Below are positions 1,790 to 15,850 of a stretch of 64,000 nt of DNA, piece by piece. This DNA is from an uncultured Clostridia bacterium (lineage in GTDB: Bacteria; Bacillota; Clostridia; Christensenellales; Borkfalkiaceae). Location of the stretch: NCBI GenBank assembly GCA_947175325.1, contig CAMWME010000007.1, positions 6,657-70,656 of the forward strand. Direction: 5' to 3'. The notes beneath the pieces are model-generated. The model was not told where the DNA came from. It did no database searches and was given only the letters and a program-made list of their open reading frames with translations. A program made the translations under genes and the position numbers. The first letter of the stretch is position 1. Every line of letters starts with the position of its first letter.

Positions 1790-2428
1790 ATGAAGAAAGG
1801 AAACACCGTTTTTTTTAATAATTCACCTTGTATAACTTCTTTTGCGGCCGTGTGCGGTTCAAAGGAAAAGGAAGGGGTTTTAGGCAAATTCGCCGATATA
1901 ACTTTGGACGACGATATGTATGAAGAAAGCACTTTTGAAAAGGCAGAGTGCAAAATGCTTTCAACCGCAATTTCGCTTGCAATACAAAAGGGCGGCTACT
2001 TGGAAAAGGATATCGACGTTCTCTTTTCGGGCGATTTGTTAAACCAAATTATTTCCGCAAGCTTTGCGGCAAGGGACTTTAACTTCCCTTTCCTCGGTCT
2101 GTATTCGGCTTGCTCCACGATGAGTGAAAGCTTGCTTTTGGGCGCAATGCTCGTAAACGCCGGTTACGTAAACCGCGTGGTTGCGGCAACGGGCAGTCAT
2201 TTTGCTTCGGCTGAAAGGCAGTACCGCTATCCCCTTGAGCTTGGCTGTACCCGCCCCCCGCAAGCTCAGTGGACGGTAACGGGTGCGGGCGGTTGCGTTA
2301 TTTCTTCGGAGAAGAAAGGCGTTAAAATCGTCAACGGAACTATGGGTAAGGTCTGCGACTTCGGTGTAACCGACGTGAACAATATGGGGGCGGCAATGGC
2401 GCCCGCCGTTGCTATAATAGGACCATAG
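1790..2428 (+). pseudogene. spoVAD: spoVAD 5' segment: codons 1-206 are authentic (to 2407), then 6 element-encoded codons (VAIIGP) and a stop
   Basis: The translation MKKGNTVFFNNSP...GDLLNQ...LYSACSTMSES...SHFASAERQYRYPLE...NNMGAAMAPA matches the SpoVAD N-terminal two-thirds. It ends prematurely at 212 aa, against about 338 aa in B. subtilis. Confidence 0.9.
2378..2428 (+). other. attL (spoVAD-derived left arm / element-derived right arm)
   Basis: Core CCCGCCG at 2402-2408. The inferred crossover dinucleotide is CC at 2402-2403. The element-side arm carries GTTG and ACCATA motifs, mirrored in the attR element-side arm. Confidence 0.65.
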
Positions 2429-2494
2429 GCAGCTAAAACACTTTAACGCAAAAAATAAAACGGGAGGACGGAATTTTACAGTTGCCGTATCAAA

Positions 2495-2530
2495 GCGCAC
2501 GCCGCATTGTGACGGCGTGCGCTCAAATTT
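2495..2530 (+). terminator. Rho-independent terminator just inside the element's left end
   Basis: GCGCACGCCG (2495-2504) pairs perfectly with CGGCGTGCGC (2513-2522) and is followed by TCAAATTTT. Confidence 0.7.
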
Positions 2531-2584
2531 TGTCGAAATTGCACTTAAATTGCGGCTAAATACAGACATTTATCTCTGTATTTC

Positions 2585-2613
2585 TTGACTTTATCGAAGA
2601 TAAGAGTTAAAAT
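2585..2613 (+). promoter_or_regulatory. SigA-type promoter for the LbH-glmM-glmS-capD-like operon
   Basis: TTGACT (2585-2590), 17-nt spacer, TAAAAT (2608-2613). Confidence 0.55.
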
Positions 2614-2693
2614 ATTTATCTACACACTGTGCATACTATAATAGATAAATTATTATCTATTAGCCAACCAAAATTTTTAAGCGGAGCAAGTAA

Positions 2694-3350
2694 TTGAAAA
2701 CAAGCGATTTGTTCGACCTTAATCACACGCAAGCGGCGGAGTACCTTAAAGCCTTTAACCATCCGTGGGAGGCTTTAAGCGGACTTAAAGATTTCATAAC
2801 CGGTTTAGGTAAAAGCCTCGACGGCAACGCTTACGAAGAAATTTCCGAAGGCGTTTGGGTTCACAAAAGCGCAAAAATTTCCCCCACGGCGTATCTGGGC
2901 GCGCCTTGCATCGTCGGTGAAAATACCGAAGTAAGACACTGCGCCTTTATTCGCGGCAGTGCGCTAATTGGTTGCGGTTGCGTGGTTGGCAATTCAACCG
3001 AGCTTAAAAACGTAATTCTGTTCGACGGGGTGCAAGTCCCGCACTATAATTACGTCGGCGACAGCATCTTGGGCTATAAAGCCCATATGGGTGCCGGCTC
3101 GATAACCTCAAACGTCAAATCCGACAAAACGCCCGTAATTATTAAAGGCGACGGAACGGAAATAAAAACCGGCTTAAAAAAGCTCGGCGCACTTTTGGGC
3201 GACTATACGGAAGTGGGCTGTAACAGCGTTTTAAACCCCGGCACCGTAACGGGCAGAAACGTTACCGTTTATCCCTTGTCTTGCGTTCGCGGAATAATTC
3301 CCGAAAACAACATTTTAAAGACGGGCGGGAAAGTGGTTAAGAAAATTTAG
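2694..3350 (+). CDS. Left-handed beta-helix (hexapeptide-repeat) acyltransferase, GlmU C-terminal-domain-like; putative sugar-1-phosphate N-acetyltransferase
   Basis: TTG start with GGAG 7 nt upstream. Repeated [LIV]G-x4 hexapeptide pattern (IVGENTEV, IGCGCVVG, ILGYKAHMGAGS, EVGCNSVLNPGT). It sits immediately upstream of glmM and glmS. Confidence 0.6.
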   Translation: MKTSDLFDLNHTQAAEYLKAFNHPWEALSGLKDFITGLGKSLDGNAYEEISEGVWVHKSAKISPTAYLGAPCIVGENTEVRHCAFIRGSALIGCGCVVGNSTELKNVILFDGVQVPHYNYVGDSILGYKAHMGAGSITSNVKSDKTPVIIKGDGTEIKTGLKKLGALLGDYTEVGCNSVLNPGTVTGRNVTVYPLSCVRGIIPENNILKTGGKVVKKI

Positions 3351-3380
3351 AGAGAATACGAAAGCACTTCAAGGAGTACT

Positions 3381-4769
3381 ATGGGTAAATATTTCGGTAC
3401 GGACGGATTCCGCGGCGAAGCAAACGTTACGCTGACCGCCGACCATGCATATAAAGTTGGAAGATTCCTCGGCTGGTATTACGGGGAGCTTAAAAGAAGA
3501 AACGGCGACGACTCGGCTCCGAGAATCGTTATCGGCAAGGATACGAGAAGGTCGAGCTATATGTTCGAATACACCCTCATCGCGGGGCTCACCGCGTCGG
3601 GTGCGGACGCTTATATGCTCCACGTTTCCACTACGCCGTCCGTTGCATACATCGCAAGGGTGGACGAGTTCGATTGCGGAATAATGATTTCCGCAAGCCA
3701 TAACCCCTATTACGACAACGGCATCAAGCTTTTGAACTCACACGGCGAAAAGATGGACGAAGGCACCATTTCGCTTATCGAAGACTTCCTTGACGGCAAG
3801 CTTGAAGTTTTCGGTGAAAAGTGGACCGAGCTTCCCTACGGCACTAAAGAGCATATCGGCAAAACGGTGGACTTTGCGGCGGGCAGAAACCGCTATATCG
3901 GCTATCTCATTTCCCTCGGAATGTATTCGTTCCGCGGAATGAAGGTCGGGCTCGATTGTGCAAACGGCTGTGCGTGGAATATAGCAAAGTCCGTTTTTGA
4001 AGCCCTCGGCGCAACGGTTTACACGATTAACGCCGAGCCGGACGGCTTCAACATAAACGAAAACGCCGGTTCAACGCATATCGAAGGTTTGCAAAAACTC
4101 GTAAAGGAAAAGAAGCTTGACGTCGGCTTTGCATACGACGGGGACGCCGATAGGTGCCTTTGCGTCGACGAAAACGGTAACGTAGTTACCGGCGACCACA
4201 TTCTTTACGTCTACGGGCTGTATATGAAGGAACGCGGCAAGCTCGTTGGCAACACTATCGTCACTACGGTTATGTCCAACTTCGGGCTTTTCAAGGCGCT
4301 CGATGCCGCGGGAATAAAATACGTCAAAACGGCAGTGGGCGATAAATACGTCTACGAGCATATGTCCGCCCACGGCAACAGGCTCGGCGGCGAACAGTCG
4401 GGGCATATAATATTCTCCAAATACGCAACCACGGGCGACGGGATACTTACAAGCCTTAAAATCATGGAAGTCATAATGGCTAAAAAGCAGCCTCTTTCCA
4501 AGCTTGCCGAGCCGGTAAAGGTTTACCCGCAAGTGCTCGTAAACGTTCGCGTTTCCGATAAGGAAAAGGCGCAAAACGACAAGGACGTAGCTTCGGCGGT
4601 CAAAAAGATTGAAAAAAAGCTTAAATCAAGCGGCAGAATTTTAGTAAGACCTTCGGGTACCGAACCTCTTATCAGAGTAATGGTGGAGGCTGAAAGCAAG
4701 GATATTTGCAAGGCTTACGCGGAAGAAGTCGTTTCCGTGCTCCGTTCAAAGGGCTACTGTCAAGATTGA
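3381..4769 (+). CDS. glmM: Phosphoglucosamine mutase
   Basis: GTDGFRGEAN N-terminus, active-site SASHNPYYDNGIK, GDGDADR metal loop, GEQSGH sugar loop. AAGGAG RBS. Confidence 0.92.
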   Translation: MGKYFGTDGFRGEANVTLTADHAYKVGRFLGWYYGELKRRNGDDSAPRIVIGKDTRRSSYMFEYTLIAGLTASGADAYMLHVSTTPSVAYIARVDEFDCGIMISASHNPYYDNGIKLLNSHGEKMDEGTISLIEDFLDGKLEVFGEKWTELPYGTKEHIGKTVDFAAGRNRYIGYLISLGMYSFRGMKVGLDCANGCAWNIAKSVFEALGATVYTINAEPDGFNINENAGSTHIEGLQKLVKEKKLDVGFAYDGDADRCLCVDENGNVVTGDHILYVYGLYMKERGKLVGNTIVTTVMSNFGLFKALDAAGIKYVKTAVGDKYVYEHMSAHGNRLGGEQSGHIIFSKYATTGDGILTSLKIMEVIMAKKQPLSKLAEPVKVYPQVLVNVRVSDKEKAQNDKDVASAVKKIEKKLKSSGRILVRPSGTEPLIRVMVEAESKDICKAYAEEVVSVLRSKGYCQD

Positions 4770-4779
4770 GGAAAGTCAA

Positions 4780-6612
4780 ATGTGCGGCATCGTCGGATAT
4801 ATAGGTAAAAAACAAGCGGCGCCCATACTTTTGGACGGGCTTAAAAAATTAGAATACAGAGGTTACGATTCTGCGGGCATAGCTCTTATAACCCCCGCGG
4901 GTAATATAGACATTGCAAAAGCAAAGGGCAAATTAGACGTATTGGTTGAAATGACGGACGGCGGCAAGGCTATTAAAGGCATTTGCGGTATCGGGCATAC
5001 CCGCTGGGCAACCCACGGCGAGCCGAGCGAAAACAACGCTCACCCTCATTGCAACGACGAAAAAACTATCGCGGCAGTTCATAACGGCATAATTGAAAAT
5101 TATGCCGAGCTTAAAGAAAAGCTTATACGAAGGGGATATAAATTCTATTCCCAAACGGATACCGAGGTTGCGACTAAGCTCGTCGATTACTACTACAAAA
5201 AGTACGGTGAACCGCTTCGTGCTATCTCGGAGTTTGCTCTTCACGTTAGGGGCTCTTACGCCTTGGCAGTTATGTTCAAGGACTACCCCGATACTGTTTT
5301 CGCTATCCGTAAGGACAGCCCCATGATAGTTGGCGTAGCGGGCGACGACGCGTTTATCGCTTCCGACGTTCCCGCAATTTTGAAGTATACCAAAAGCGTT
5401 TACTACGTCGATAATCTTCAAATCGCACGGCTTGAAAAGGGTGGCGTTACCTTCTTTAACCTCGATGGGGAGGAAGTTTCAAAAGAAATAGTCGAAATCA
5501 CTTGGGACGCCGAGGCGGCTGAAAAGGGCGGGTATGAGCATTTTATGCTCAAAGAAATCCACGAACAGCCCAAAGTCGTAAAGGATACATTAAATTGCGT
5601 TTACCGTAACGGCGGCCTCGATTTCTCCGAAGTAGGTCTTACGGACGAAGATTTCACCAAAATAAACGGTATCACGATTGTCGGGTGCGGCTCTGCTTAC
5701 CACGTCGGCGTGGTTATGCAGTACGTTACGGAAGACTTGGCGCGCGTACCCGTTAGGGTGGAAATCGCCTCCGAATTCCGTTACCGCAATCCCGTCCTTA
5801 ACGGGGAGCTCGTTATCGCCATAAGCCAAAGCGGTGAAACGGCAGATACGCTTGCGGCGGTCAAAGCGGCAAAGGAAAACGGGCTTAAAACTCTTGCAAT
5901 AGTCAACGTGGTGGGCTCGTCCATCGCGCGTGAAGCCGACTACGTTTTCTACACCAAGGCGGGCCCCGAAATTTCGGTTGCCACGACTAAGGCTTACAGC
6001 GCACAGCTCGTTGCGGGGTACGCGTTTGCAATAAAACTCGCTTACCTTCGTGCAAAAATTGATAAAAACGGTTATGCGGAGCTTCTCAACCAGCTTTCCG
6101 CACTTCCCGAAAAGATAGAATTGCTGTTGAACAGCAAAGAACAAATTCAAAAGTTTGCGGCAAAAACCATGGATAGGAAGGACGTTTTCTTCATTGGCAG
6201 AGGCGCAGACTATGCTGCAAGCATAGAGGGAAGCTTAAAGCTCAAAGAAATAAGCTATATCCATTCTGAGGCTTACGCCGCTGGCGAACTCAAACACGGC
6301 ACCATAAGCCTTATCGAGGACGGAACGCTCGTTTTGGGTATTCTCACTCAGATAAACCTTGCTGAAAAAACTTTAAGCAACCTCTTTGAAACGTCAACCC
6401 GCGGAGCTATAATCGCGGCTATTGCCGCAGAAAACGTTAAATTACCCGCCGACGGCCTTGATTTCGTTTTCCGAATCCCCGACGTTGACGAGCATTTCGC
6501 CCCCAGCCTTGCGGTAATTCCCTTGCAGTTCTTTGCGTATTACCTCAGCGTTTTAAGGGGTAACGACGTGGACAAGCCTCGCAATTTAGCCAAAAGCGTT
6601 ACCGTCGAGTAA
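4780..6612 (+). CDS. glmS: Glutamine--fructose-6-phosphate aminotransferase (isomerizing)
   Basis: N-terminal MCGIVGY nucleophile Cys, two SIS domains (GCGSAYH, SQSGETADT), and C-terminal ...NLAKSVTVE typical of GlmS. Length 610 aa. Confidence 0.95.
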   Translation: MCGIVGYIGKKQAAPILLDGLKKLEYRGYDSAGIALITPAGNIDIAKAKGKLDVLVEMTDGGKAIKGICGIGHTRWATHGEPSENNAHPHCNDEKTIAAVHNGIIENYAELKEKLIRRGYKFYSQTDTEVATKLVDYYYKKYGEPLRAISEFALHVRGSYALAVMFKDYPDTVFAIRKDSPMIVGVAGDDAFIASDVPAILKYTKSVYYVDNLQIARLEKGGVTFFNLDGEEVSKEIVEITWDAEAAEKGGYEHFMLKEIHEQPKVVKDTLNCVYRNGGLDFSEVGLTDEDFTKINGITIVGCGSAYHVGVVMQYVTEDLARVPVRVEIASEFRYRNPVLNGELVIAISQSGETADTLAAVKAAKENGLKTLAIVNVVGSSIAREADYVFYTKAGPEISVATTKAYSAQLVAGYAFAIKLAYLRAKIDKNGYAELLNQLSALPEKIELLLNSKEQIQKFAAKTMDRKDVFFIGRGADYAASIEGSLKLKEISYIHSEAYAAGELKHGTISLIEDGTLVLGILTQINLAEKTLSNLFETSTRGAIIAAIAAENVKLPADGLDFVFRIPDVDEHFAPSLAVIPLQFFAYYLSVLRGNDVDKPRNLAKSVTVE

Positions 6613-6646
6613 AAATATAAACTCACTTAATTTAGGAAAAAGATAA

Positions 6647-8476
6647 ATGAAAAACAGATATATGAAATTTAAAGAAGTAGCCATACTCGCCGCGTGTGAT
6701 TTTGCCGCCATAACGGTGGCGGTCTTGTTGTCGCTTTTAACGGCTAACGGCGCGGTTGACTTCTGCCTCGAGCTTTTATATTGGTATCTTTTAAATCTCG
6801 CTGTAGGGTACCTGTTCTTTGCGCTGTTCAGACTGTATTTTATCGTGTTTACGTCCGTTGGTATCGTCGATACGTTAAAAACGGTAGGCGCGGCGGTATG
6901 TATTCTTGCGGCAAATATCGGTTTTTCGTTTATTTTTGACATAGTCAACTTGCGCGTTTGCGGCGCTTACGCCACGTTTTTAGCAGTGCTGGTTCTTATC
7001 ATAAGGTTTTCTAAACGCTTCTACGTTGCGGTAAGGTATTCTTTTTCAAGCAAGAACAAAAGCAAAGTAAGGGCAATGATAGTGGGCGGCGGTAACGCGG
7101 GCACTATGCTTATTAGGGAAATTCTCACTACGGACAAAATAACTTATCTTCCCGTGTGCGTAATCGACGACGACCCCAACAAAATCGGTAAAAATATTTA
7201 CAACGTAAAAATCGTCGGCAATACGGAAAAAATCCCCGAACTTGCCGAAAAGTACTCCATTGACGAAATTTTAATCGCTATGCCCTCGGTGCCCAAAGCG
7301 GAAATAAAACGCATCTACGACATCTGCGAAAATACGAAGTGCAAGGTTAAAACCCTCCCCGGTATCTATCAGATAGTCAACGGCGATGCAAGCGTAACCG
7401 CCCTCAGAGAGGTGCAGATTTCCGACCTTTTGGGAAGGGACCAAATCAAAGTCAACCTCGACGAAATTATGGGCTATATCGAAAACCGCACCGTCCTAGT
7501 TACGGGCGGAGGCGGCTCGATAGGAAGCGAGCTTTGCCGCCAAATCGCAACTCATTCCCCCAAACAGCTTATTATTCTCGATATTTACGAAAACAACGCG
7601 TACGACATCGAGCAAGAGCTTAAACGCCGTCACCCCGAACTCAACTTGCTCGTTTTAATAGCAAGTATAAGGGACGTAGGCAAACTGGAGGACGTATTCA
7701 AAAAGTACTCACCCGAAATAGTGTTCAACGCCGCGGCGCACAAGCACGTGCCGTTGATGGAAACCAGCCCTAACGAAGCGGTTAAAAACAACGTTTTCGG
7801 TACGCTGAATATGGCAAGGTGCGCCGATAAATTCGGCTCTAAGGTGTTCGTACAGATTTCAACGGATAAAGCCGTCAACCCCACGAATATTATGGGCGCG
7901 ACCAAGCGTATCTGTGAAATGATAATTCAAACCATAGGTAAACACAGCAAACAGACCAAGTTCGTTGCCGTCCGTTTCGGTAACGTTCTCGGCTCAAACG
8001 GCTCGGTTATTCCTCTCTTTGAAAAACAGATAGCGGAGGGAGGCCCCGTCACCGTTACGCACAAGGATATAATCAGATACTTTATGACTATACCCGAGGC
8101 GGTTTCCCTCGTATTGCAAGCGGGTGCCTACGCGCAAGGCGGGCAGATCTTCGTCCTCGATATGGGCGAGCCGGTAAAGATTTACGACTTAGCTTACAAC
8201 CTTATTAAGCTTTCGGGACTTGAACCGAACGTGGATATAATGATAGAATGTACGGGTTTGCGTCCCGGTGAAAAGCTGTATGAGGAAAGGCTTATGGACG
8301 AGGAGGGTATGCAAAAGACTCCCAACGGTCTTATAAGCATAGCAAACCCCATAGCTCTTGACGAGGAAAACTTGTGGTCAACCTTGGATAAGCTCAAAAA
8401 GGCGGCTTACGACGAAACCCCCGATATGAAGAATTTGGTATCTAAGCTCGTAACGACCTACAAACCTCAAAATTAA
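6647..8476 (+). CDS. Membrane-anchored polysaccharide biosynthesis protein, CapD/PglF/WbpM-like nucleotide-sugar 4,6-dehydratase
   Basis: N-terminal TM helices, two Rossmann motifs (VGGGNAGT and VTGGGGSIGSEL), and the FVQISTDKAV...ATKR pattern of extended SDR dehydratases. Confidence 0.85.
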   Translation: MKNRYMKFKEVAILAACDFAAITVAVLLSLLTANGAVDFCLELLYWYLLNLAVGYLFFALFRLYFIVFTSVGIVDTLKTVGAAVCILAANIGFSFIFDIVNLRVCGAYATFLAVLVLIIRFSKRFYVAVRYSFSSKNKSKVRAMIVGGGNAGTMLIREILTTDKITYLPVCVIDDDPNKIGKNIYNVKIVGNTEKIPELAEKYSIDEILIAMPSVPKAEIKRIYDICENTKCKVKTLPGIYQIVNGDASVTALREVQISDLLGRDQIKVNLDEIMGYIENRTVLVTGGGGSIGSELCRQIATHSPKQLIILDIYENNAYDIEQELKRRHPELNLLVLIASIRDVGKLEDVFKKYSPEIVFNAAAHKHVPLMETSPNEAVKNNVFGTLNMARCADKFGSKVFVQISTDKAVNPTNIMGATKRICEMIIQTIGKHSKQTKFVAVRFGNVLGSNGSVIPLFEKQIAEGGPVTVTHKDIIRYFMTIPEAVSLVLQAGAYAQGGQIFVLDMGEPVKIYDLAYNLIKLSGLEPNVDIMIECTGLRPGEKLYEERLMDEEGMQKTPNGLISIANPIALDEENLWSTLDKLKKAAYDETPDMKNLVSKLVTTYKPQN

Positions 8477-8490
8477 ATTAAACCAAACTA

Positions 8491-8520
8491 AAAGCGGCTT
8501 GCACGTTTGCAAGCCGCTTT
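8491..8520. terminator. Bidirectional terminator between convergent genes
   Basis: GCGGCTTGCA (8494-8503) pairs with TGCAAGCCGC (8508-8517), flanked by AAA and TTT runs. Confidence 0.7.
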
Positions 8521-8530
8521 AAATTTCGTT

Positions 8531-10018
8531 TTAAACTTCTTGTTCGGTTTCTTTTTCGACGCTTACACTTTCAACTTCCGCTTCCGTATTAGGCGTCTTA
8601 TCTTGCGATTTATCAAAAACGGCGAGAAGGCACGCGTAAACCACCGTGGGGAATATAAGGAAGATATGGCAGTCCAACAGTGATAAAATAAGGATAGGAA
8701 GAATAGTTAAAGCAATAAAAGTACGTTCAAGCGTAACGTTTTTGCAGAAGGAAATCACCGTCTGCGCTCTGTGAACCAAATAAGCTGCAAGCCCTATAAT
8801 TCCGCAAGCTGCCATTAATTCCAATACCGTGTTGTGGCACATCATAGGGATAAAGCTCAGTCCGGCGGCGCCGTCGTAAGTATAATCAACGTAAAAGCCC
8901 GAACCGAGCAGAGGGGAGGAGCTGAAGTAGTCTAACGCTTCTTTCCAAATTCTCCAACGTCCGCTTCCGTTAAGTTCTCCGTTTACGAACACGTTTTCGA
9001 AAACGGTTTTGAAAAATCCTACGAATTTTTCTCTGAAAATACATATAAATACTATTCCCGCAGCAACCGTGGCGGCAGCTATGCAAATATTCGGGATTCG
9101 GTACTTGCCTTTAACAAGCAAAATTATCATGCAAGCGGGGTAAATAACCAGCGCGCCGACCATAGCTTGTCTACTGCAACAAAGGAACGTCGCGGCTAAT
9201 ATTAATAGGGAATAAGCTGTAAACAGATATCCGCACTTTTCCTTACCCGCAAGATACAGCACGGCGGGAATGCACATTAAAATCAGTAAACCGTAAGTAT
9301 TGTAAACGCCCCAGCCGAATATCAGCTTTCCCCTTTGAATATTTCCGTCAACGAACAAGTTTTCCGTCGTGGCGTAAGCTACTATAAGCTCGATAATCAG
9401 TAATACGCTTAAAGCCACGAACCCGTAGGCAATCTTTTCAAAGTTCTCTTTGCTAATCTTTATATTGTCTTTTATCGCGGCGTAAATCAACAATAAACAA
9501 ATCGTAAGCACCGCGCCGTAAAGAATATTTTTCGGAGTATATTCTTTACTGAAAAGTCCGTTTAAAATAAACGCGAACGAAAGAACGCACAACCCGTAAA
9601 AAATAGGGCTAAGCTTCATTTTCTTTTTAACACAGCACAACACTAACCTGTAAATCAAAGCGCAGAATATAAGTGAAACTATAACTATAATCTGTGCAAG
9701 TATTGCCGTTGAGGAGTAGTAGTCGTAACCGCCCATTGCGTCCGAAGGGGTATGTTTAAGTGAAACTACCAAATTAACGAATATAACTTGCGGGAGCAGC
9801 GGGGTAATATCATCAAGCAGTAAAAATATTAATAGAAAAACTAACCCCATATAATATATTGCAACTATATCCAAGCCGAGGTAATAGCAAGCAAGCAATA
9901 CCGCCGCAGTGGCAAAGGGAAAATATTTAGACGATATAACGTTTTTTAGTATATTCAACGCTTTACTGCGCTTTATCTTTTCAAGGGAAGTAGTCATAAC
10001 GTTAAAAGTATAATCCAA
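8531..10018 (-). CDS. O-antigen ligase / Wzy-type polymerase family polytopic membrane protein
   Basis: 495 aa with at least 10 hydrophobic helices and a central loop region CCSRQAMVGAL. Visibly more AT-rich than its neighbours, as is typical for wzy-like genes. The acidic C-terminal tail is unusual. Confidence 0.6.
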   Translation of the reverse strand: MDYTFNVMTTSLEKIKRSKALNILKNVISSKYFPFATAAVLLACYYLGLDIVAIYYMGLVFLLIFLLLDDITPLLPQVIFVNLVVSLKHTPSDAMGGYDYYSSTAILAQIIVIVSLIFCALIYRLVLCCVKKKMKLSPIFYGLCVLSFAFILNGLFSKEYTPKNILYGAVLTICLLLIYAAIKDNIKISKENFEKIAYGFVALSVLLIIELIVAYATTENLFVDGNIQRGKLIFGWGVYNTYGLLILMCIPAVLYLAGKEKCGYLFTAYSLLILAATFLCCSRQAMVGALVIYPACMIILLVKGKYRIPNICIAAATVAAGIVFICIFREKFVGFFKTVFENVFVNGELNGSGRWRIWKEALDYFSSSPLLGSGFYVDYTYDGAAGLSFIPMMCHNTVLELMAACGIIGLAAYLVHRAQTVISFCKNVTLERTFIALTILPILILSLLDCHIFLIFPTVVYACLLAVFDKSQDKTPNTEAEVESVSVEKETEQEV

Positions 10019-10040
10019 TTGTTACCAAATGTCAAGGTGA

Positions 10041-10056
10041 TAATCTAATTAGATTA
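10041..10056. promoter_or_regulatory. Perfect 16-bp palindrome TAATCTAATTAGATTA in the divergent promoter region (candidate operator)
   Basis: The exact inverted repeat was read directly. It lies just downstream of a minus-strand TTGAAC-18-CATAAT promoter candidate and is flanked by GGTGAT repeats. Confidence 0.4.
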
Positions 10057-10090
10057 TGGTGATTAAACCGTAAAATGTTCAATTCAGTAC

Positions 10091-10119
10091 TTGATTTATA
10101 TAGGTATCCGTGATAAAAT
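10091..10119 (+). promoter_or_regulatory. SigA-type promoter for the GDP-heptose operon
   Basis: TTGATT, 17-nt spacer, TAAAAT. It is followed by the 13-bp palindrome GTGTAAATTACAC at 10138-10150. Confidence 0.45.
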
Positions 10120-10211
10120 AATTATATAATCGTGTCCGTGTAAATTACACTTTTATTAAACGACAAACGGCGCGTTATTATTTCATAATAAAATAATCGA
10201 ACGGTGATAAA

Positions 10212-11225
10212 ATGATTTTAACCAAGACGCCTTTCAGAATGAGTTTTTTCGGCGGCGGAACGGATATGCCGCAATTCTTCGAAAAGTACGGCGGGGCAGT
10301 TTTGTCCACGTCGTTCGATAAATACGCCTACGTAACGGTAAGGCACTTACCGCGCTTTTTCGATTACACTACCGAGCTTATCTACGCCAAAACCGAGCGC
10401 ATAACGAGGCTCGACGATATGGAGCACCCTATGGTCAGAAACGCCATGAAGATGCTCGACATGAAGGAGCTGCACATTTCCTACGACGCGGACCTACCCG
10501 CAAGAACGGGCTTGGGCACCTCAAGCACCTTTGCCGTCGGTCTTTTGAACGCCTTTTATTGCTTAAAGGGTCAGTACCGTTCCAAGAAAGAGCTTGCAAA
10601 CGACGCAATCTATCTTGAAAGAACGCTCTGCAACGAAGCGGGCGGTTGGCAAGACCAAATCGCCGCAGCCTTCGGCGGACTTAACAGAATTGACTTCAAC
10701 GAAAGGGGCTACCACGTCAACCCCTTGATTATCTCACCCGAAAGGAAGATAAGGTTAAACGATAACTTAATGCTTTTCTTCACGGGCTTTACGCGTATGT
10801 CTTCGCAGATACAAACCTCGACCACCGCGTCCATTGACGAAAAGCACGCACAGCTTATGAAGATGCGTTCCCTTGTCGACGAGGCGCAAGAAATTTTGGA
10901 AAAACCCGAAAGGGACTTAAACGACTTCGGCAGACTTTTGGATACTTCGTGGCGGCTTAAAAAACAAACGGGCAACAAAATCTCGTCCAACTCGATAGAC
11001 GAGCTTTACGAAAAAGGCATAAAAGCCGGCGCTTTGGGCGGCAAGCTTCTCGGCGCGGGCGGCGGCGGCTTCCTTCTTTTCTACGTCGAACCCGACAAGC
11101 AGTCCGCCGTAAGAAAAGCTTTTGCCGACTTAATGGAAGTACCCTTCAAATTTGAAAACGCCGGTACGCGCGTAATTTATTACACGCCCGAAGCCTTCGA
11201 TAAACGCACCAGCATAGAGGAGTAG
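10212..11225 (+). CDS. hddA: GHMP-family sugar kinase, D-glycero-alpha-D-manno-heptose 7-phosphate kinase type
   Basis: N-terminus MILTKTPFRMSFFGGGTD and the GHMP motif PARTGLGTSS. C-terminal GAGGGGFLLFY. It sits in an operon with nucleotidyltransferase/phosphatase and gmhA genes. Confidence 0.8.
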   Translation: MILTKTPFRMSFFGGGTDMPQFFEKYGGAVLSTSFDKYAYVTVRHLPRFFDYTTELIYAKTERITRLDDMEHPMVRNAMKMLDMKELHISYDADLPARTGLGTSSTFAVGLLNAFYCLKGQYRSKKELANDAIYLERTLCNEAGGWQDQIAAAFGGLNRIDFNERGYHVNPLIISPERKIRLNDNLMLFFTGFTRMSSQIQTSTTASIDEKHAQLMKMRSLVDEAQEILEKPERDLNDFGRLLDTSWRLKKQTGNKISSNSIDELYEKGIKAGALGGKLLGAGGGGFLLFYVEPDKQSAVRKAFADLMEVPFKFENAGTRVIYYTPEAFDKRTSIEE

Positions 11226-11226
11226 T

Positions 11227-12516
11227 ATGAAAACAGTCATTATGGCTGGGGGCAAAGGCACCCGTATCTCGTCGGTTGCAAGCGATATCCCCAAACCGAT
11301 GATTAAAATAGACGGCAAGCCCGTCCTCGAAAGAGAGATAGAGTGTTTAAAGGCACAAGGCTTGACGGATATAATAATAACCGTTTCGCACCTTGGTCAG
11401 ATAATAATCGACTATTTCGGCGACGGAAGCAAAATTTCCCCCGTAACGGGTAAGCCCTTCGGCGTCAATATCGAGTATTATTTCGAGGAGCAGCCCTTGG
11501 GCAACGCGGGCGCACTGTTTAAAATCAAGGACAAGCTTACGGACGATTTCCTTCTTTTAAACGCGGACGCGGTTTTCGATATCGACTTTATAAGGTTTAT
11601 AAACTATCACAAACAAAAAGGCGGGCTCGTAACTCTTTTCACCCACCCCAACAGCCACCCCTACGACAGCGGACTTATTATCTTCGATAATAACGGCGCG
11701 GTGTTAAAATGGCTTGCCAAAGAGGACGACCGCCCCGCACACTACAAAAACAGAGTAAACGCGGGCTTGCACGTCCTATCCAAAAAGGTTTTAGATACCG
11801 AAATCGACACCCCCAAAATAGACTTGGACAGACAGCTTTTAAAGCCTTTGGCGGGCACGGGTAAAATGTTCGTATACGACAGCCCCGAATACGTCAAGGA
11901 TATGGGCACGCCCGACCGCTACGAAAGCGTCTGCCGCGACTTTGCAAACGGCACCGTGCAAGCAAAAAATCTCATAAACAAGCAAAAGGCGATTTTCCTC
12001 GATAGGGACGGCACTATCAATAAGTACGTCGGCTTTTTAAAAAGCGTTGAGGAGTTCGAGCTTTTGGTCGGCGTATCCGACGCAATTAAAAAAATAAATG
12101 CAAGCGGGTACCTTGCAATAGTCGTAACTAACCAACCCGTTATCGCAAGGGGGGAAGTTACCTTTGCGGGGCTTGAAGAAATCCACGATAAAATGGAAAC
12201 CCTTTTGGGACAAGACGGCGCGTATTTGGACGGATTGTATTTCTGCCCGCACCACCCGCACAAAGGCTACGAAGGCGAAGTGCCCGAACTTAAAATCGAC
12301 TGCGAATGCAGAAAGCCCAAGGCGGGAATGCTACTTCAAGCCGCCAAGGACTTCAATATTGATTTATCGCAGAGTTGGATGATAGGCGACGGCGAAAACG
12401 ACGTACTCTGCGGCAAAAATGCGGGCTGTAAAACCGCCTCGATAGGTCAGAACCCTTCGGCGGATATATGCGGTAAAAGTCTTTTGGACTGCGTAAACGA
12501 AATTTTGGAGAATTAG
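11227..12516 (+). CDS. Fusion: heptose-1-phosphate nucleotidyl(guanylyl)transferase (HddC-like) plus D,D-heptose 1,7-bisphosphate phosphatase (GmhB-like HAD)
   Basis: The N-terminal half has the MAGGKGTR nucleotidyltransferase loop. The C-terminal half has FLDRDGTIN (DxDGT HAD motif), VTNQP, and the zinc-binding CPHHP...CECRKP motif typical of GmhB. Confidence 0.8.
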   Translation: MKTVIMAGGKGTRISSVASDIPKPMIKIDGKPVLEREIECLKAQGLTDIIITVSHLGQIIIDYFGDGSKISPVTGKPFGVNIEYYFEEQPLGNAGALFKIKDKLTDDFLLLNADAVFDIDFIRFINYHKQKGGLVTLFTHPNSHPYDSGLIIFDNNGAVLKWLAKEDDRPAHYKNRVNAGLHVLSKKVLDTEIDTPKIDLDRQLLKPLAGTGKMFVYDSPEYVKDMGTPDRYESVCRDFANGTVQAKNLINKQKAIFLDRDGTINKYVGFLKSVEEFELLVGVSDAIKKINASGYLAIVVTNQPVIARGEVTFAGLEEIHDKMETLLGQDGAYLDGLYFCPHHPHKGYEGEVPELKIDCECRKPKAGMLLQAAKDFNIDLSQSWMIGDGENDVLCGKNAGCKTASIGQNPSADICGKSLLDCVNEILEN

Positions 12517-12518
12517 TT

Positions 12519-13169
12519 ATGGAAGCTAAATTGCAAAAACATATTGATTTGTTAATTGAACGCTATCCGTCGCTTGCCGTTTGCAAGGAAGATATAATTA
12601 AAGCTTACGAAATTCTTGAAGAATGCTATTCAAACGGCAATAAGCTTTTAATCGCGGGCAACGGCGGCAGCTGTGCAGACGCCAATCATATCGTCGGCGA
12701 GTTAATGAAGGGGTTTAAACTCAAACGCAAGTGCCCCGCAACCTTCGCCGAAAAGTTAAAAAATATTGACGGTACTCGCGGCGCGGAGCTTGCCGAAAGC
12801 TTACAAGGCGGCTTATCCGCAATAGCGCTTGACGGACACCAAGCCTTAAACACGGCGTTTATTAACGACGTTGCGGGCGGCGGACTTCTCACCTACGCAC
12901 AGCAAGTCTACGGCTACGGAAAGGCGGGGGACGTTCTCCTCGGTATATCTACCTCGGGCAATTCCAAAAACGTAATGAACGCAACGGTGGTCGCACGCGC
13001 TACTGGTATAAAAGTTATAGGCTTGACTGGCTCAACGGGCGGCGAGCTTGCAACGGTAGCCGACGTCGCAATCAAGGTCCCTTCAACCGAAACCTATATG
13101 ATACAAGAGCTTCACTTGCCCGTGTATCACACCCTTTGCCTAATGCTTGAAGACCATTTCTTCGGTTAG
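12519..13169 (+). CDS. gmhA: Phosphoheptose (sedoheptulose-7-phosphate) isomerase, SIS domain
   Basis: LIAGNGGSCADANHIVGEL and ISTSGNSKNV motifs. Length of 216 aa is slightly long for GmhA. Confidence 0.8.
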   Translation: MEAKLQKHIDLLIERYPSLAVCKEDIIKAYEILEECYSNGNKLLIAGNGGSCADANHIVGELMKGFKLKRKCPATFAEKLKNIDGTRGAELAESLQGGLSAIALDGHQALNTAFINDVAGGGLLTYAQQVYGYGKAGDVLLGISTSGNSKNVMNATVVARATGIKVIGLTGSTGGELATVADVAIKVPSTETYMIQELHLPVYHTLCLMLEDHFFG

Positions 13170-13192
13170 TTGTTCCGTTTTAGGAGTAAATC

Positions 13193-13762
13193 ATGAAACC
13201 ACATAAAATTCACCCCATATCTGTTTTGCGTTTGATTTGGTTATCAATTTGGATATTTTTCTTGTTATTAAGTATTGGCGCAATAGTAGGTATTTTTATT
13301 GAAGAACACGACCTGTTTTTTGTTGTGCTTGTGTTAATCTGTGGTATTATTGGGTTAGTTGTCAGTTTTACTATTTTATGTTTAGATTTTAAAAAAGGCG
13401 TTAAGTTTGACGCTAACGGCATAAAGGTAGAGGCTGACGTGGCAGACAAAAAAGGGCTTTTAGTTCGTAGATTTCAACATAAAACGGAGATAGCTTATAA
13501 CGAAATAGATGATATATTATTAATAGCTTCGGATACGGATTCGCGTGGTCGAAAGGTAGAAAACGTTTTCATAAAAATGCCTTATATTGTTTTTAAGTGT
13601 AAGGACGGGAAACAAAAAGCAATAAATGTCTATTATTTTAACAAAAAACAAAAAATAAGGATAATTGACGAAATAAGACAAAGGGCATTAGAAGCTGGAA
13701 ACATTCTAAATATACCGTCAGGTGAAGTTATGTGGAATGATTATAGTGTAAGATACAGATAA
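13193..13762 (+). CDS. Hypothetical membrane protein (two N-terminal TM helices plus a soluble beta-rich domain)
   Basis: AGGAG RBS, and the coding region is clearly more AT-rich than its surroundings. I recognise no family. Confidence 0.5.
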   Translation: MKPHKIHPISVLRLIWLSIWIFFLLLSIGAIVGIFIEEHDLFFVVLVLICGIIGLVVSFTILCLDFKKGVKFDANGIKVEADVADKKGLLVRRFQHKTEIAYNEIDDILLIASDTDSRGRKVENVFIKMPYIVFKCKDGKQKAINVYYFNKKQKIRIIDEIRQRALEAGNILNIPSGEVMWNDYSVRYR

Positions 13763-13797
13763 AATAAGGAGCTATATAGCTCCTTATTATTTATTTT
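13762..13797 (+). terminator. Rho-independent terminator
   Basis: ATAAGGAGCTA (13764-13774) pairs perfectly with TAGCTCCTTAT (13777-13787), followed by a T-rich tract. Confidence 0.75.
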
Positions 13798-13834
13798 CGG
13801 TATAATTTCCGCCCCGAAAGGCAAAAACCGAAGT

Positions 13835-14044
13835 ATGACAAACAAAGAATTAATCGATATTTCCGCCGTAGAAATTACGGGCAACTCCGTCCAAGAACGG
13901 CTCGCGTGTTTTATAAAAACGGTAAAAAACCCTTATTGTTTCCGCGTTAAGTCAACGCCCGTCCAACTCGTCTTTTCGGATAAAGCGGGCGCTCCCGCCG
14001 TGGAAAACGCCTTGGTAAATATTGCCATCCGCAGATTTAAGTAA
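13835..14044 (+). CDS. Small (69 aa) protein upstream of the recombinase; candidate accessory or directionality factor
   Basis: Contains a KNPYCFRV motif that I recall from small proteins neighbouring large serine recombinases in Clostridia elements (DUF-type family, from memory). The RBS is weak. Confidence 0.45.
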   Translation: MTNKELIDISAVEITGNSVQERLACFIKTVKNPYCFRVKSTPVQLVFSDKAGAPAVENALVNIAIRRFK

Positions 14045-14118
14045 ATCAATTGCAATAAAAGCCGCCTTCCCGTAAAATAAAATTGCGTTAAAGTGCCGTC
14101 CTTTTAAAAGGCGTACAT

Positions 14119-15816
14119 ATGTCAAGAACAAGCAAATATCTCTCGGAGGCAGTTCAACCCGCACCCGTAGCGGCGTGGCGGGCGGGGCTGTATATAAGAC
14201 TTTCCCGAGAGGACGGCGACAAATTAGAGAGCGAAAGCGTTTCCTCGCAGAAAGCGCTGTTACAGCGTTTCGTTGACGACAACACTGAAATAACTCTAAC
14301 GGATTATTATATAGACGACGGTTACAGCGGGACGGACTTCGAACGCCCAGCTTTTCAGCGTATGATGGCGGACGCGGCAAGTAAAAAAATAAATTGCGTA
14401 ATCGTCAAAGACTTGTCTCGTTTCGGCAGAAACTACGTCGAGGCGGGCAAGTATTTGGAACTCGTTTTCCCGACCTTCAAGCTCCGCTTTATCGCGGTGA
14501 ACGACGGCATAGACAGCTTTGCCCAGCCGTCCACTATGAACACCGTGATAGTGCCCTTTAAAAACATAATCAACGACGAGTACTGCCGCGACATTTCAAT
14601 GAAGGTTAGAAGCGCCCTTGATATCCGCCGCAAGCAAGGCAAATTCATCGGTTCCTTCGCCGCCTACGGCTACGAAAAAGACGAAGCCGACCACAACAAA
14701 CTCGTTATCGACGATGAGGCGGCCGCAACGGTTCGCTTTATTTACGAAAAATTTCTGTCGGGTTACAGCATAATAGGCATAGCTCGGCTATTAAACGAGC
14801 GCGGCGTACCCAACCCGTCCGCCTATAAAGCCGAAAAAGGACTTAACTGCCGCCGCAGTTCAACTTGCAAAAACGGCGGTGCGTGGACGGATTCCACCGT
14901 AAGACGGATACTCACGAGCGAGGTATATATAGGCAACCTCGTGCAGAAGAAAAACGAGGTCATAAGCTATAAAATCCACTCGGCAAAAGCAGTCGAAAAG
15001 TCCAACCGCATAACGGTAAAAGGCACCCACAAACCCATAATTTTACAGCAAGATTTTGACAAAGTGCAATCTCTCTTAAAACGCGATACGCGCACCTCGC
15101 CCAAAGAGAGCGGCAAGCTGTCAACGTTTGCGGGCTTTATAAAGTGTGCCGACTGCGGCAGAGCCATGCAAAAGCGCACCGTCAAACAGCCCAACAAAAC
15201 ATACGAGTATTATATCTGTTCAACCTACCGCAAAATGCACAGCACCCTTTGCACCAAGCACGCTATCCGTGCGGAAGTCCTTGAAGAAGCAGTTCTCACA
15301 ACGCTAAACAAATATATTCAGCTTGCCGTAGACTTCGATAGACTTCTCGAAAAAATCAACCGCATGCAAAAGGGCGGGGCGCGGTCTAAAAGGCTCACCG
15401 CCGAACTTTCTTCCAACCAAAAAGAGCTTGAAAAGTCGCAAAAGATTTTACTTGATTTGTACCCCGATTTCAAAAACGGCTTAATCAGCCGCGAGCAATA
15501 CTTCGCCTTAAAGGAAAGGTATGAAAACTCAATCAAGCGCACCGAGCGTGAAATTGCCCGCATAAAGGAAGAAATGCGTAGCTTCGCAAACGGAGTGGAC
15601 GGCAGCAACCCCTTCGTTGCAACCTTCAAAAAGTACGGCGGACTAACTAAGCTTTCGCGCGATATTTTAGTCGAGCTCGTTGAAAATATCTATATCCACG
15701 AGGGCGGCGGTGTGGAAATCCATTTGAAGTGCAAGGACGCTTTTCTTGCCGCCTCCGAATATATCGAACAACACCAAACGGTGTCGAACGCCGAAAACTC
15801 AACCGGTATTGCATAA
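14119..15816 (+). CDS. Large serine recombinase (SpoIVCA/CisA / phage-integrase class)
   Basis: N-terminal resolvase domain (GLYIRLSREDGD with catalytic Ser, VIVKDLSRFGRN), a recombinase domain, a Cys-pair zinc ribbon (CADCG...C), and a C-terminal coiled-coil. Length 565 aa. Confidence 0.9.
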   Translation: MSRTSKYLSEAVQPAPVAAWRAGLYIRLSREDGDKLESESVSSQKALLQRFVDDNTEITLTDYYIDDGYSGTDFERPAFQRMMADAASKKINCVIVKDLSRFGRNYVEAGKYLELVFPTFKLRFIAVNDGIDSFAQPSTMNTVIVPFKNIINDEYCRDISMKVRSALDIRRKQGKFIGSFAAYGYEKDEADHNKLVIDDEAAATVRFIYEKFLSGYSIIGIARLLNERGVPNPSAYKAEKGLNCRRSSTCKNGGAWTDSTVRRILTSEVYIGNLVQKKNEVISYKIHSAKAVEKSNRITVKGTHKPIILQQDFDKVQSLLKRDTRTSPKESGKLSTFAGFIKCADCGRAMQKRTVKQPNKTYEYYICSTYRKMHSTLCTKHAIRAEVLEEAVLTTLNKYIQLAVDFDRLLEKINRMQKGGARSKRLTAELSSNQKELEKSQKILLDLYPDFKNGLISREQYFALKERYENSIKRTEREIARIKEEMRSFANGVDGSNPFVATFKKYGGLTKLSRDILVELVENIYIHEGGGVEIHLKCKDAFLAASEYIEQHQTVSNAENSTGIA

Positions 15817-15842
15817 AAGCGGGTTTAAACCCGCTTTTTTTA
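15817..15842 (+). terminator. Rho-independent terminator after the recombinase, just inside attR
   Basis: GCGGGTTT (15819-15826) pairs with AAACCCGC (15827-15834), followed by a T7 run. Confidence 0.75.
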
Positions 15843-15850
15843 TAAAAAAC

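Follow-up and report, generated by a model that had tools for sequence, protein, structure and literature searches.

A glycan-precursor island bounded by att sites interrupts spoVAD in a clade of uncultured gut Clostridia

Across a clade of uncultured gut Clostridia, spoVAD, a gene whose product acts in the future spore, is cut in two by a glycan island. In the 64,000-nucleotide stretch of DNA that was analysed (the window), the island spans positions 2409-15882 (13,474 bp) between two att sites. Its gene order is an LbH acetyltransferase-glmM-glmS-capD operon, a Wzy_C gene on the minus strand, a heptose cassette, an orphan gene, a DUF6870 gene, and a large serine recombinase (LSR) gene. The explanation favored here, which is considered fairly probable as a whole, is that the island is old, mostly vertical in descent, non-viral, and kept within the spoVAD coding sequence by the LSR, that spoVAD is rejoined in sporulation, and that the island glmS and glmM act as supply copies. 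Known intervening elements act in the disposable mother cell, which makes a forespore protein as the target the larger surprise.

The interrupted gene and the island edges have the following features.

1790-2408, plus strand: 5' part of spoVAD, codons 1-206 (Pfam SpoVAD positions 3-206 of 329, 277 bits)
2402-2408, no strand: attL core CCCGCCG, identical in attR (sequence)
2494-2523, plus strand: terminator-like hairpin past the truncated spoVAD stub (scan: 11 pairs, 9 of them G-C)
15876-15882, no strand: attR core CCCGCCG (sequence)
15883-16259, plus strand: 3' part of spoVAD, 125 codons (in-frame joining to 1790-2408)

The 5' reading frame continues to 2428 through six element-encoded codons and then stops. 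Joining 1790-2408 to 15883-16259 gives an in-frame SpoVAD of 331 amino acids, in which the junction rebuilds AMAPAAADTI, the same motif as in the solved SpoVAD 3lma. The predicted junction is near-identical to the empty sites of the island-free relatives L083 and L084. The element arm of attL (...TTGCTATAATAGGACCATAGG) is kept in relatives, and the element arm CTTATGGTGTTTTATTGACAACCGCC precedes the attR core. The neighboring spoVAC, spoVAEb, and yunB are intact.

The split spoVAD recurs in at least eight species-level lineages together with the att sites, the four core genes, and the DUF6870-LSR pair; the insertion is at the same spoVAD codon, and nucleotide identity between these lineages is 72-81%. 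attL, attR, the LSR, and the DUF6870 gene are each present wherever that part of the locus is covered. Synonymous sites are saturated (dS >1), yet both spoVAD halves have dN/dS values of 0.04-0.05 (0.04 for the 5' part against L003 and L004) and the cargo values of 0.05-0.07; therefore, the island is old and the split spoVAD is still in use. Such strong purifying selection on both halves implies that the gene is rejoined. Host and cargo trees have their major splits in common and agree to a large extent. The cargo of L138 pairs with that of L133 in conflict with the host tree, indicating some horizontal replacement. Relatives that share the synteny but have no island and an uninterrupted spoVAD nest among the island-bearing lineages.

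Scans of all element open reading frames against Pfam, NCBIfam, and PHROGs found no phage, conjugation, or replication genes, and the recombinase was the sole mobile-element match. The nearest viral LSRs are 41-52% identical to the island LSR. Judged from the lack of phage and ICE families and the distance of the viral LSRs, the origin of the island is non-viral. Tetranucleotide distances of 3-kb element segments from host segments give z = -1.4 to +1.05, and the composition outliers are the orphan (GC3 0.28) and wzy (GC 0.41) alone. The preliminary description of this DNA had proposed a cargo of glycan-precursor genes, neither phage nor conjugative, mostly resembling the flanks in composition and long resident; apart from the two outlying genes, the scans, the shared insertion codon, the largely congruent trees, and the purifying selection bear this out.

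The cargo consists of a fixed operon, a Wzy_C gene, and a variable slot.

2585-2613, plus strand: sigma-A-type promoter TTGACT-17-TAAAAT of the LbH-glmM-glmS-capD operon (promoter scan)
2694-3350, plus strand: LbH acetyltransferase (TIGR03992, 145 bits; PDB 2ggo/5z09)
3381-4769, plus strand: glmM, phosphoglucosamine mutase (TIGR01455, 532 bits, cut-off 447; SASHNP active-site motif)
4780-6612, plus strand: glmS, glutamine-fructose-6-phosphate transaminase (TIGR01135, 757 bits, cut-off 418; N-terminal MCGIVGY)
6647-8476, plus strand: membrane-anchored CapD/PglF-type sugar-nucleotide 4,6-dehydratase (Polysacc_synt_2, 395 bits; CoA_binding_3)
8491-8520, both strands: bidirectional terminator in the capD/wzy gap (13-pair hairpin)
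8531-10018, minus strand: Wzy_C-family membrane protein, glycan polymerase or ligase (Pfam Wzy_C, 60.5 bits, cut-off 32)
10132-13796, plus strand: 3,665-bp insertion of heptose cassette and orphan (clean indel against the sister species L135)
10212-11225, plus strand: HddA-type heptose-7-phosphate kinase, GHMP (NF049969, 153 bits, below cut-off; PDB 4usm, 3k85, 4n3o)
11227-12516, plus strand: fusion of an N-terminal HddC-type nucleotidyltransferase and a C-terminal GmhB-type HAD phosphatase (profile and PDB matches)
12519-13169, plus strand: GmhA-type sedoheptulose-7-phosphate isomerase, SIS (TIGR00441, 133 bits, below cut-off; PDB 2xbl, 1tk9)
13193-13762, plus strand: orphan membrane protein, 189 amino acids, GC 0.32, GC3 0.28 (composition), with no Pfam or NCBIfam match

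The closest match of the LbH protein is the acetyltransferase half at the C terminus of archaeal-type GlmU, and the protein is a probable GlcN-1-P N-acetyltransferase. The operon would convert fructose-6-P to GlcNAc-1-P, and UDP-GlcNAc would be committed to a 4-keto-6-deoxy sugar. The Wzy_C polymerase or ligase is its usual companion and is also kept in L086, L090, L092, L133, L135, and L136. An Rfam scan found no glmS ribozyme upstream of the island glmS. The 64-kb window contains no second glmS or glmM. The operon promoter is kept in six lineages within a spacer that is otherwise 52% identical. This promoter is the operon's own and sits behind a terminator; excision would leave the transcription unit unaltered, and the earlier suggestion that spore maturation is coupled to glycan supply finds weak support.

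Lineage-specific surface-glycan genes occupy the slot before the DUF6870-LSR pair, here a nucleotide-heptose cassette. Every heptose enzyme scores below its NCBIfam equivalog cut-off; the closest solved structures nevertheless belong to heptose enzymes (WcbL 4usm, GmhB 2gmw, HddC 6jq8, and GmhA 2xbl). All four activities of the complete heptose pathway proposed in the preliminary description are predicted here, though not as a stable part of the element, since the insertion is missing in L135, L092, and L136, which are all three other lineages in which the wzy-to-LSR region is seen. The cassette is common elsewhere in gut metagenomes, without spoVAD or a closely related LSR nearby. The orphan and the DUF6870 gene (13835-14044) are additions to the earlier gene list. 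Pfam, NCBIfam, and PHROGs scans found no classical glycosyltransferase in this island variant, as had been stated, Wzy_C itself being a polymerase/ligase family. The statement does not extend to relatives, where the same slot carries full loci with a PglC-like transferase and several glycosyltransferases. Slot contents there include DegT, PglC-like Bac_transf, GT2, GT4, GT-D, TagF-like, LicD, and Wzy genes, and the cargo after capD/wzy ranges among lineages from none to a full glycosyltransferase locus. With its fixed operon and variable slot, the island therefore behaves as a swappable surface-polysaccharide locus.

The island glmS and glmM most likely serve the surface glycan as dedicated supply copies and are not the only ones of the cell. 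Island-free members of the clade are viable without the island, through loss or gain, and must therefore have other copies. The closest island-free GlmM and GlmS (73% and 65% identity) lie in a murA-ftsQ-ftsZ-glmM-glmS housekeeping context in another Clostridia MAG, which shows a possible seat for a housekeeping copy. The alternative, that the island copies are the only ones in the genome and that loss of the excised circle kills UDP-GlcNAc synthesis, so that the island is retained, is considered unlikely. It is favored by the apparent fixation of the island within species. The index lists 227 blocks for the GlmS cluster P0163 and 386 for the LSR cluster P0264; 24 contigs were read for each, and the island was present in 24/24 for both. 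All examined GlmS clusters of at least 73% identity are island-located (7 clusters, from seven lineages), and glmU is missing from its usual prs-adjacent place in the window. The vegetative-type promoter of the operon, cargo evolution as slow as that of flanking core genes, and the failure to find a rejoined SpoVAD from island-bearing species among the 120 best SpoVAD clusters point the same way. Against it, the island GlmS of L138 is 65% identical to that of the window and its GlmM 80%, which suggests relaxed constraint or a replaced gene.

The recombination genes lie at the right end of the island.

13835-14044, plus strand: DUF6870 protein, 69 amino acids, candidate recombination directionality factor (Pfam, 50 bits)
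14050-14078, plus strand: sigma-A-type promoter TTGCAA-17-TAAAAT of the recombinase gene (scan; kept in four lineages)
14119-15816, plus strand: LSR, 565 amino acids (Resolvase, Recombinase, and Zn_ribbon_recom; PHROG 95 integrase)

The best solved matches of the LSR are TnpX, SprA (9dxh), and the A118 integrase. Its best NCBIfam match is CcrB (127 bits, far below cut-off) and its second-best XisF (99.8 bits, below cut-off). Against L004, the LSR of the window is full length and 66% identical (dN 0.27). The DUF6870 gene is directly 5' of the LSR in every variant in which the LSR region is seen. In 12 IMG/VR contigs with distant LSRs, a DUF6870-like ORF lies upstream on the same strand, directly in 4/12 and at 0.9-2.2 kb in 8/12. 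A single-sequence structure model of the DUF6870 protein had a pLDDT of 42, too low to be informative. In sporulation, the LSR, with the DUF6870 protein as directionality factor, would recombine attL with attR and restore spoVAC-spoVAD-spoVAEb. Integration of attP into attB is the default LSR reaction, and by it the island would afterwards be retained. In one very common species the 3' half is inverted, as three independent assemblies show; in L136-L138, this half lies 14.5 kb away on the strand opposite to spoVAC and the 5' part. With the sites so oriented, a 14.5-kb flip would take the place of excision, and the segment would simply flip back. Some results speak against the favored explanation: no sporulation-sigma promoter was recognized 5' of the DUF6870 gene, the 3' half lies away from the LSR in L133/L134, and no rejoined SpoVAD of island-bearing species was found among the 120 best SpoVAD clusters (best identity 91%).

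Excision in the mother cell alone, with the forespore keeping the island, is the way of all characterized intervening elements (PMC4191935, PMC5025042, PMC5595907). The LSR promoter is constitutive-looking, as for C. difficile CD1231, and cell specificity would then lie with the small partner gene. The forespore, in contrast, is where sigma-G directs production of the SpoVA proteins, with SpoVAD as the cytoplasmic plug of the channel in the spore inner membrane (PMC9186386). A gene rebuilt in the mother cell alone would give the forespore no SpoVAD, which is needed according to the selection on both halves, making this course rather improbable. That the halves are translated apart and assemble as a two-chain SpoVAD, the recombinase being a relic or serving rare transfer, is very unlikely. 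The SpoVAD fold is two-lobed and thiolase-like, a conserved in-frame TTG opens the 3' half in the lineages with attR read, and assemblies show the off state only. However, the break falls within AMAPAAADTI, the most conserved motif and not a linker, no good ribosome-binding site precedes the TTG, the LSR and both att arms are conserved, and the 3' half is inverted in L136-L138. That the insertion inactivated spoVAD in a lineage which has given up sporulation is scarcely credible: Christensenella-like bacteria are described as non-sporulating, and L003 is labelled uncultured Christensenella sp., but the low dN/dS on both halves at saturated synonymous sites already contradicts it, the neighboring genes are intact, and eight lineages preserve the reading frame and att sites.

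Several known systems resemble the island in part. The skin elements that interrupt sigK (SpoIVCA in B. subtilis; CD1231 with the RDF CD1234 in C. difficile) share an LSR at the edge, insertion into a sporulation-gene coding sequence, and precise in-frame rejoining, which is predicted for the island too. C. difficile skin also has a constitutive-looking LSR promoter and a small partner gene nearby (PMC5025042). Unlike skin, whose target is a mother-cell gene, the island interrupts a forespore (sigma-G) gene, lacks phage remnants, carries a coherent glycan locus under purifying selection, is common to a whole clade, and has inverted att sites in one island-bearing species. The island LSR is related to SprA of SPbeta (SprA/SprB), with 9dxh among its best solved matches. 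SPbeta resides in spsM, a CapD-like gene, and both elements are tied to envelope polysaccharide (PMC4191935). SPbeta is a functional phage with a polysaccharide gene as its target, whereas the island is non-phage with a CapD-like gene as cargo.

The gin element in gerE of B. cereus ATCC 10987 is likewise a non-prophage intervening element, excised by serine recombinases (PMC5595907), but it targets a mother-cell regulator, has three recombinases, and lacks coherent metabolic cargo. SCCmec-type islands (Ccr LSRs) resemble the island in their non-phage, non-conjugative cargo and single conserved chromosomal site, and CcrB is the best NCBIfam match of the island LSR. SCC enters the rlmH 3' end without destroying the gene, has no developmental tie, and moves frequently between strains, unlike the island. 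The heterocyst fdxN element (XisF) of cyanobacteria shows LSR-driven developmental rejoining of an interrupted gene, as proposed here, but it acts in terminally differentiated cells, belongs to another phylum, and has no glycan cargo. O-antigen, capsule, and S-layer-glycan loci (PglF/E/D/C-type initiation, Wzy-dependent; GDP-glycero-manno-heptose pathway GmhA-HddA-GmhB-HddC) share the CapD/PglF-type dehydratase, Wzy_C, the four heptose activities, and conserved precursor genes beside a hypervariable transferase block. Such loci normally lack att bounds in a sporulation gene and rarely include glmS and glmM, whereas the island has both.

The spoVAD gene of this contig is interrupted behind codon 206 of 331, and Pfam SpoVAD positions 3-206 and 201-329 are matched by two separate ORFs. 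The intervening island is flanked by the other genes of the operon as follows.

Features of the interrupted spoVAD region (genes from the ORF listing and profile scan)
1275-1724: spoVAC
from 1790: spoVAD, 5' part
2402-2408 and 15876-15882: core CCCGCCG, common to both island ends
2409-15882: island, 13,474 bp, its extent set by joining the shared cores
to 16259: spoVAD, 3' part
16261-16650: spoVAEb
16682-17353: yunB
Predicted attB of the window: AATATGGGGGCGGCAATGGCGCCCGCCGCGGCAGACACCATAATTCAG
Predicted attP of the window: CTTATGGTGTTTTATTGACAACCGCCCCCGCCGTTGCTATAATAGGACCATAGG

Joining the cores in silico gives an in-frame SpoVAD of 331 aa, which aligns end to end with the solved SpoVAD 3lma and regains the AMAPAAADTI motif at the junction. 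The junction sequence is near-identical to the uninterrupted spoVAD site in L083 and L084, two related loci without the island. The arms of the element form an imperfect palindrome (CTTATGGT...TTGACAAC / GTTGCTATAA...ACCATAGG), which fits the expectation for the attP of a large serine recombinase (LSR). No rejoined (on-state) spoVAD from an island-bearing species was present among the 120 best SpoVAD clusters, which come from assemblies. Just within attL, the motif CACTTTAACGCAAAAAA (2439-2456) is kept in seven lineages, and its distance to the crossover varies. A conserved 32-aa ORF, MRKEFDLSRRDERESLIK... (1196-1294), shares bases with the SDR stop codon and with the beginning of spoVAC; most related loci retrieved have it called as a gene, island present or absent.

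Near one end, the island carries the gene of a site-specific recombinase, an LSR at 14119-15816, 66 bp away from attR. PF00239, PF07508 and PF13408 lie in one protein, each over the Pfam cut-off, and the sequence YIRLSREDGD reads as having a serine at the catalytic-Ser position. A conserved promoter, TTGCAA-17-TAAAAT, lies upstream of the LSR gene. A phage ancestry of the LSR was considered and set aside, as the matches of a viral-contig scan are 41-52% identical at most. A further LSR is found upstream of thyA/Zip genes in relatives (L083, 1446-3200; L086-L088, 1-1177), and in L086-L088 it adjoins a BclA_C collagen-like (exosporium-type) gene.

A DUF6870-like gene (13835-14044, 69 aa) lies directly 5' of the LSR gene, and this order was seen wherever the region was covered (the window, L004, L092/L093, L094/L095, L133, L135 and L136-L138); the contigs of L003, L086-L089 and L090 stop short of it. 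On 12 IMG/VR contigs, LSRs only 33-41% identical to that of the window are preceded on the same strand by DUF6870-like ORFs, directly in 4 of the 12 and at a distance of 0.9-2.2 kb in 8. The pairing in these contigs (L096-L110) may be widespread and is uncharacterised; the literature search returned no mention of DUF6870. A single-sequence structure model of the protein reached a pLDDT of about 42 and was left out of the fold search. When a sporulation-sigma promoter was sought 5' of the gene, the four-lineage alignment gave a GTATAA-like box alone, and a sigma-K-like match upstream of the gene in L092 was not conserved in it.

The same contig structure was found again in other assemblies of the window organism. 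Searches anchored on GlmS, SpoVAD and LSR recovered the split spoVAD together with an LbH-glmM-glmS-capD core in seven further lineages (L003, L004, L086-L089, L090, L092/L093, L133/L134 and L136-L138). In L135, the sister species of the window organism, and in L094/L095, an L086-type relative, only the right, attR-side end is covered. The lineages are only 72-81% identical in DNA, in island and flanks alike, and dS exceeds 1 against L003 and L004, with synonymous sites saturated. Against the same two lineages, both spoVAD halves give a dN/dS of 0.04-0.05 and the cargo one of 0.05-0.07, and neighbouring host genes are similar. Flanking host proteins and cargo proteins give trees that agree in their major splits (L086 and L094, 89% identical in DNA, were kept as separate taxa in the final trees). 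The exception is the L138 cargo, which clusters with that of L133 and suggests occasional horizontal replacement. Saturated dS, low dN/dS and matching trees together indicate that the island is long-resident and mostly vertically inherited and that the split gene is still needed. The preliminary description had preferred long residence to a recent prophage, and the many diverged lineages bear it out.

Some members of the family are arranged differently. In the more distant lineage of L133 (17336-21836) and L134, genes for pyrophosphatase, LysR and malic enzyme come after the LSR, the spoVAD 3' half is not within 3 kb of the LSR, and wzy is placed at the left end. A gene for an EF-G-like GTPase (684 aa) lies within the island in the LSR-attR interval of L094 (11789-13843) and L095.

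An inverted configuration is found in L136-L138, three independent assemblies of one very common species, for whose LSR cluster 386 blocks are indexed in the collection. The spoVAD-3'-spoVAEb-yunB block and the 5' half are on different strands, and attL (~1.9 kb) and attR (~16.5 kb) are recognisable and mutually inverted.

The spoVAD halves in L138
1306-1944 and 16114-16476: the two halves, on opposite strands

From the orientation of these sites, recombination would flip 14.5 kb instead of excising it, no DNA would be lost from the chromosome, and an in-frame spoVAC-spoVAD-spoVAEb-yunB operon would result. The inverted site pair would thus be able to serve as a loss-free toggle, as a germ-line switch would require. 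No inversion that rebuilds a sporulation gene was reported in the literature searched.

The island consists of eleven genes with hardly any spare DNA. Its core operon encodes an LbH acetyltransferase (218 aa, resembling the acetyltransferase half of archaeal-type GlmU), GlmM, GlmS and a membrane-anchored CapD/PglF-type dehydratase, and is preceded by two signals.

Signals upstream of the core operon
2494-2523: terminator-like hairpin, ahead of the core-operon promoter
2585-2613: sigma-A-type promoter TTGACT-17-TAAAAT, which drives the core operon

The promoter is conserved in six lineages within a poorly conserved spacer. Both glmS (757 bits vs cut-off 418) and glmM (532 vs 447) pass the NCBIfam equivalog thresholds. 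A bifunctional GlmU (uridylyltransferase and acetyltransferase) is absent from the island, where GlmU models score far below cut-off. The gene of a Wzy_C protein lies on the opposite strand to the core operon and is followed by an HddA-type kinase, an HddC-GmhB fusion (nucleotidyltransferase N-terminal) and a GmhA-type isomerase, and then by a low-GC orphan, the DUF6870 gene and the LSR.

The ORF listing agrees with the profile scans on the operon and the Wzy-like protein, so that glycan-precursor cargo between the att sites, as first noticed from the sequence, is confirmed overall; the interpretation placed on it is supported in part. The cargo had also been called non-phage and non-conjugative. 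Scans with Pfam, NCBIfam and PHROGs detected neither capsid, terminase, portal, tail or lysis families nor any replication, relaxase, type IV secretion or conjugation gene in the island, with all 11 ORFs accounted for. The similarity to the flanks in base composition, judged by eye at first, holds as well, the island being host-like (tetranucleotide z -1.4 to +1.05) except for the orphan (GC3 0.28) and wzy. The orphan (13193-13762) encodes a 189-aa membrane protein without a family match; its GC of 0.32 and GC3 are far under those of the host, and it arrived together with the heptose cassette.

The four heptose activities GmhA, HddA, GmhB and HddC are encoded together according to domain matches and best PDB relatives, the best solved relatives of the cassette proteins being heptose-pathway enzymes. 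The genes score below the curated NCBIfam cut-offs (HddA 153 bits vs 600, HddC 91 vs 300, GmhB 162 vs 178, GmhA 133 vs 209), and the GDP-heptose assignment is putative, as the choice of GTP is not legible from sequence and the proteins miss the equivalog scores. Compared with the sister species L135, the cassette is a clean 3,665-bp indel (10132-13796). Of 80 gut-metagenome loci, at least 62 have the same three genes in the same order (58-80% identity), and neither spoVAD nor a closely related LSR lies beside the cassette in those loci. Its neighbours there include genes for polysaccharide pyruvyl- and acetyltransferases, and in about a dozen loci it adjoins a glmM. In gut-metagenome contigs L166, L172, L179, L181, L182, L190, L191, L197, L199, L209 and L210, a glmM 74-78% identical to that of the island follows the cassette by ~200 bp or less, and in L197 glmS follows too; heptose and hexosamine genes thus neighbour each other outside the island as well.

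The cassette occupies a slot after capD/wzy whose content varies by lineage.

Contents of the slot in related loci
L004, L092, L135, L136: empty
L003: Sel1-repeat proteins
L086/L094, L090: full glycan locus with DegT aminotransferase, PglC-like Bac_transf, GT2, GT-D, GT4, TagF-like or LicD transferases, a second Wzy and an IspD-like enzyme
L133, L136: sigma-70-region-4 protein and two unknown proteins

Two points of the preliminary description therefore apply to one variant and not to the element. The complete heptose pathway stands in that all four activities are present, and as an indel it is the trait of one variant. The lack of a glycosyltransferase holds for this variant of the island, whereas the slots of L086/L094 and L090 carry several.

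It had further been argued that, if its glmS and glmM are the sole copies of the genome, the island would be strongly selected for retention. The 64-kb window contains no second glmS or glmM, glmU is missing from its usual site beside prs, all inspected GlmS clusters at 73% identity or more lie in an island, and the island looks fixed within species. Sole copies are nevertheless unlikely, given more than 100 intact 331-aa SpoVAD clusters at 78-92% identity and the island-free L083 and L084, where the order thyA-dfrA-...-SDR-spoVAC-spoVAD-spoVAEb-yunB-pheT is kept. In the tree, these two group with the island-bearing L004, L086/L094 and L133 (split support 95-99%, internal resolution weak). Whether by loss or gain, such relatives mean that genomes of the clade are viable without the island and must have glmS and glmM of their own. 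The closest GlmM/GlmS pair from outside an island also lies in a housekeeping context, murA-ftsQ-ftsZ-glmM-glmS, in another Clostridia MAG. GlmS clusters could be paired with LSR clusters through contigs of equal length in the match lists (590852, 21566, 29332), which gave no second copy. The relatives were found by a pattern-based scan of the genome collection limited to 80 loci, which a diverged second glmS or glmM could escape. The window has no glmS ribozyme, and one is present in just two of ten related loci, L082 and L035; at such rarity its absence cannot tell housekeeping from auxiliary glmS copies.

Elsewhere in the window, dCMP deaminase-prs-pth-mfd occupy 26267-31893, and glmU is absent from the place ahead of prs where Firmicutes usually have it, both here and in the island-free L084. 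The strongest compositional outlier (55001-59000, tetranucleotide z up to 3.7) covers a 977-aa ORF (55703-58636), and neither this ORF nor the 484-aa ORF just upstream (54175-55629) has a Pfam match. The only Rfam match of the window is a bacterial large SRP RNA (37064-37328, minus strand, RF01854, 188 bits).

Programmed DNA rearrangements in spore formers are deemed safe because they are confined to the mother cell, which dies. The published intervening elements split mother-cell genes, namely sigK, spsM, spoVFB, spoVR, gerE, yabG, cotJC and spoIIID; an interrupted spoVAD was not reported in the literature searched. Synthesis of the SpoVA proteins takes place in the forespore and depends on sigma-G, and SpoVAD closes the SpoVAC-SpoVAEb channel as a plug on its spore-cytoplasm side (PMC9186386). 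Since SpoVAD is made in the forespore, the rejoined gene would be needed in the germ line, and spoVAD would depart from the mother-cell targets of this element class. A conserved, selected break in a forespore gene would violate the mother-cell rule and leave one of three answers: a reversible germ-line switch, an unknown route of SpoVAD supply, or a split protein.

Building on the anatomy, att sites, junction, conservation, selection and promoters documented here, we tentatively propose the switch, at rather less than even likelihood. The rearrangement would occur in the forespore, the germ line, and be reversible: LSR and DUF6870 protein would rejoin spoVAD for dipicolinic acid import, LSR alone would reinsert the island on outgrowth, and L136-L138 would flip 14.5 kb without loss. 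In the most likely mechanism overall, LSR expression is probably constitutive, and the DUF6870 protein, as candidate directionality factor, would be needed by LSR for attL x attR joining in sporulation. Restoration of the island would then follow, either through the attP x attB reaction that LSRs carry out by default or through a second flip. The core operon presumably supplies GlcNAc-1-P and UDP-GlcNAc to a CapD-initiated surface glycan, the lineage-specific part of which may be encoded by the slot. A natural test case is the species with inverted sites, as its two states both remain chromosomal and countable in reads.

If true, no earlier case would be known of a DNA rearrangement in the germ line of bacterial spores that is both programmed and reversible, and its carrier would be a domesticated surface-glycan island that diversifies the cell surface through its variable slot. 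In abundant uncultured gut Clostridia, a recombinase-bounded island can turn into a domesticated surface-polysaccharide locus, its precursor core conserved and its slot swappable. The implications concern surface diversity at strain level, recognition by phages and the immune system, and heptose metabolites that hosts can sense.

The island resembles the skin, SPbeta, vfbin, vrin, gin and yin class in its insertion within the coding sequence of a sporulation gene, the short core shared by both ends, the reading frame restored on joining, and its own recombinase near one end. It differs from this class in being without prophage-like gene content, a feature that it shares with gin (PMC5595907). 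Compared with the sporulation gene-intervening elements, the window island is non-viral, clade-wide and glycan-carrying, lies in a forespore gene and has an inversion form.
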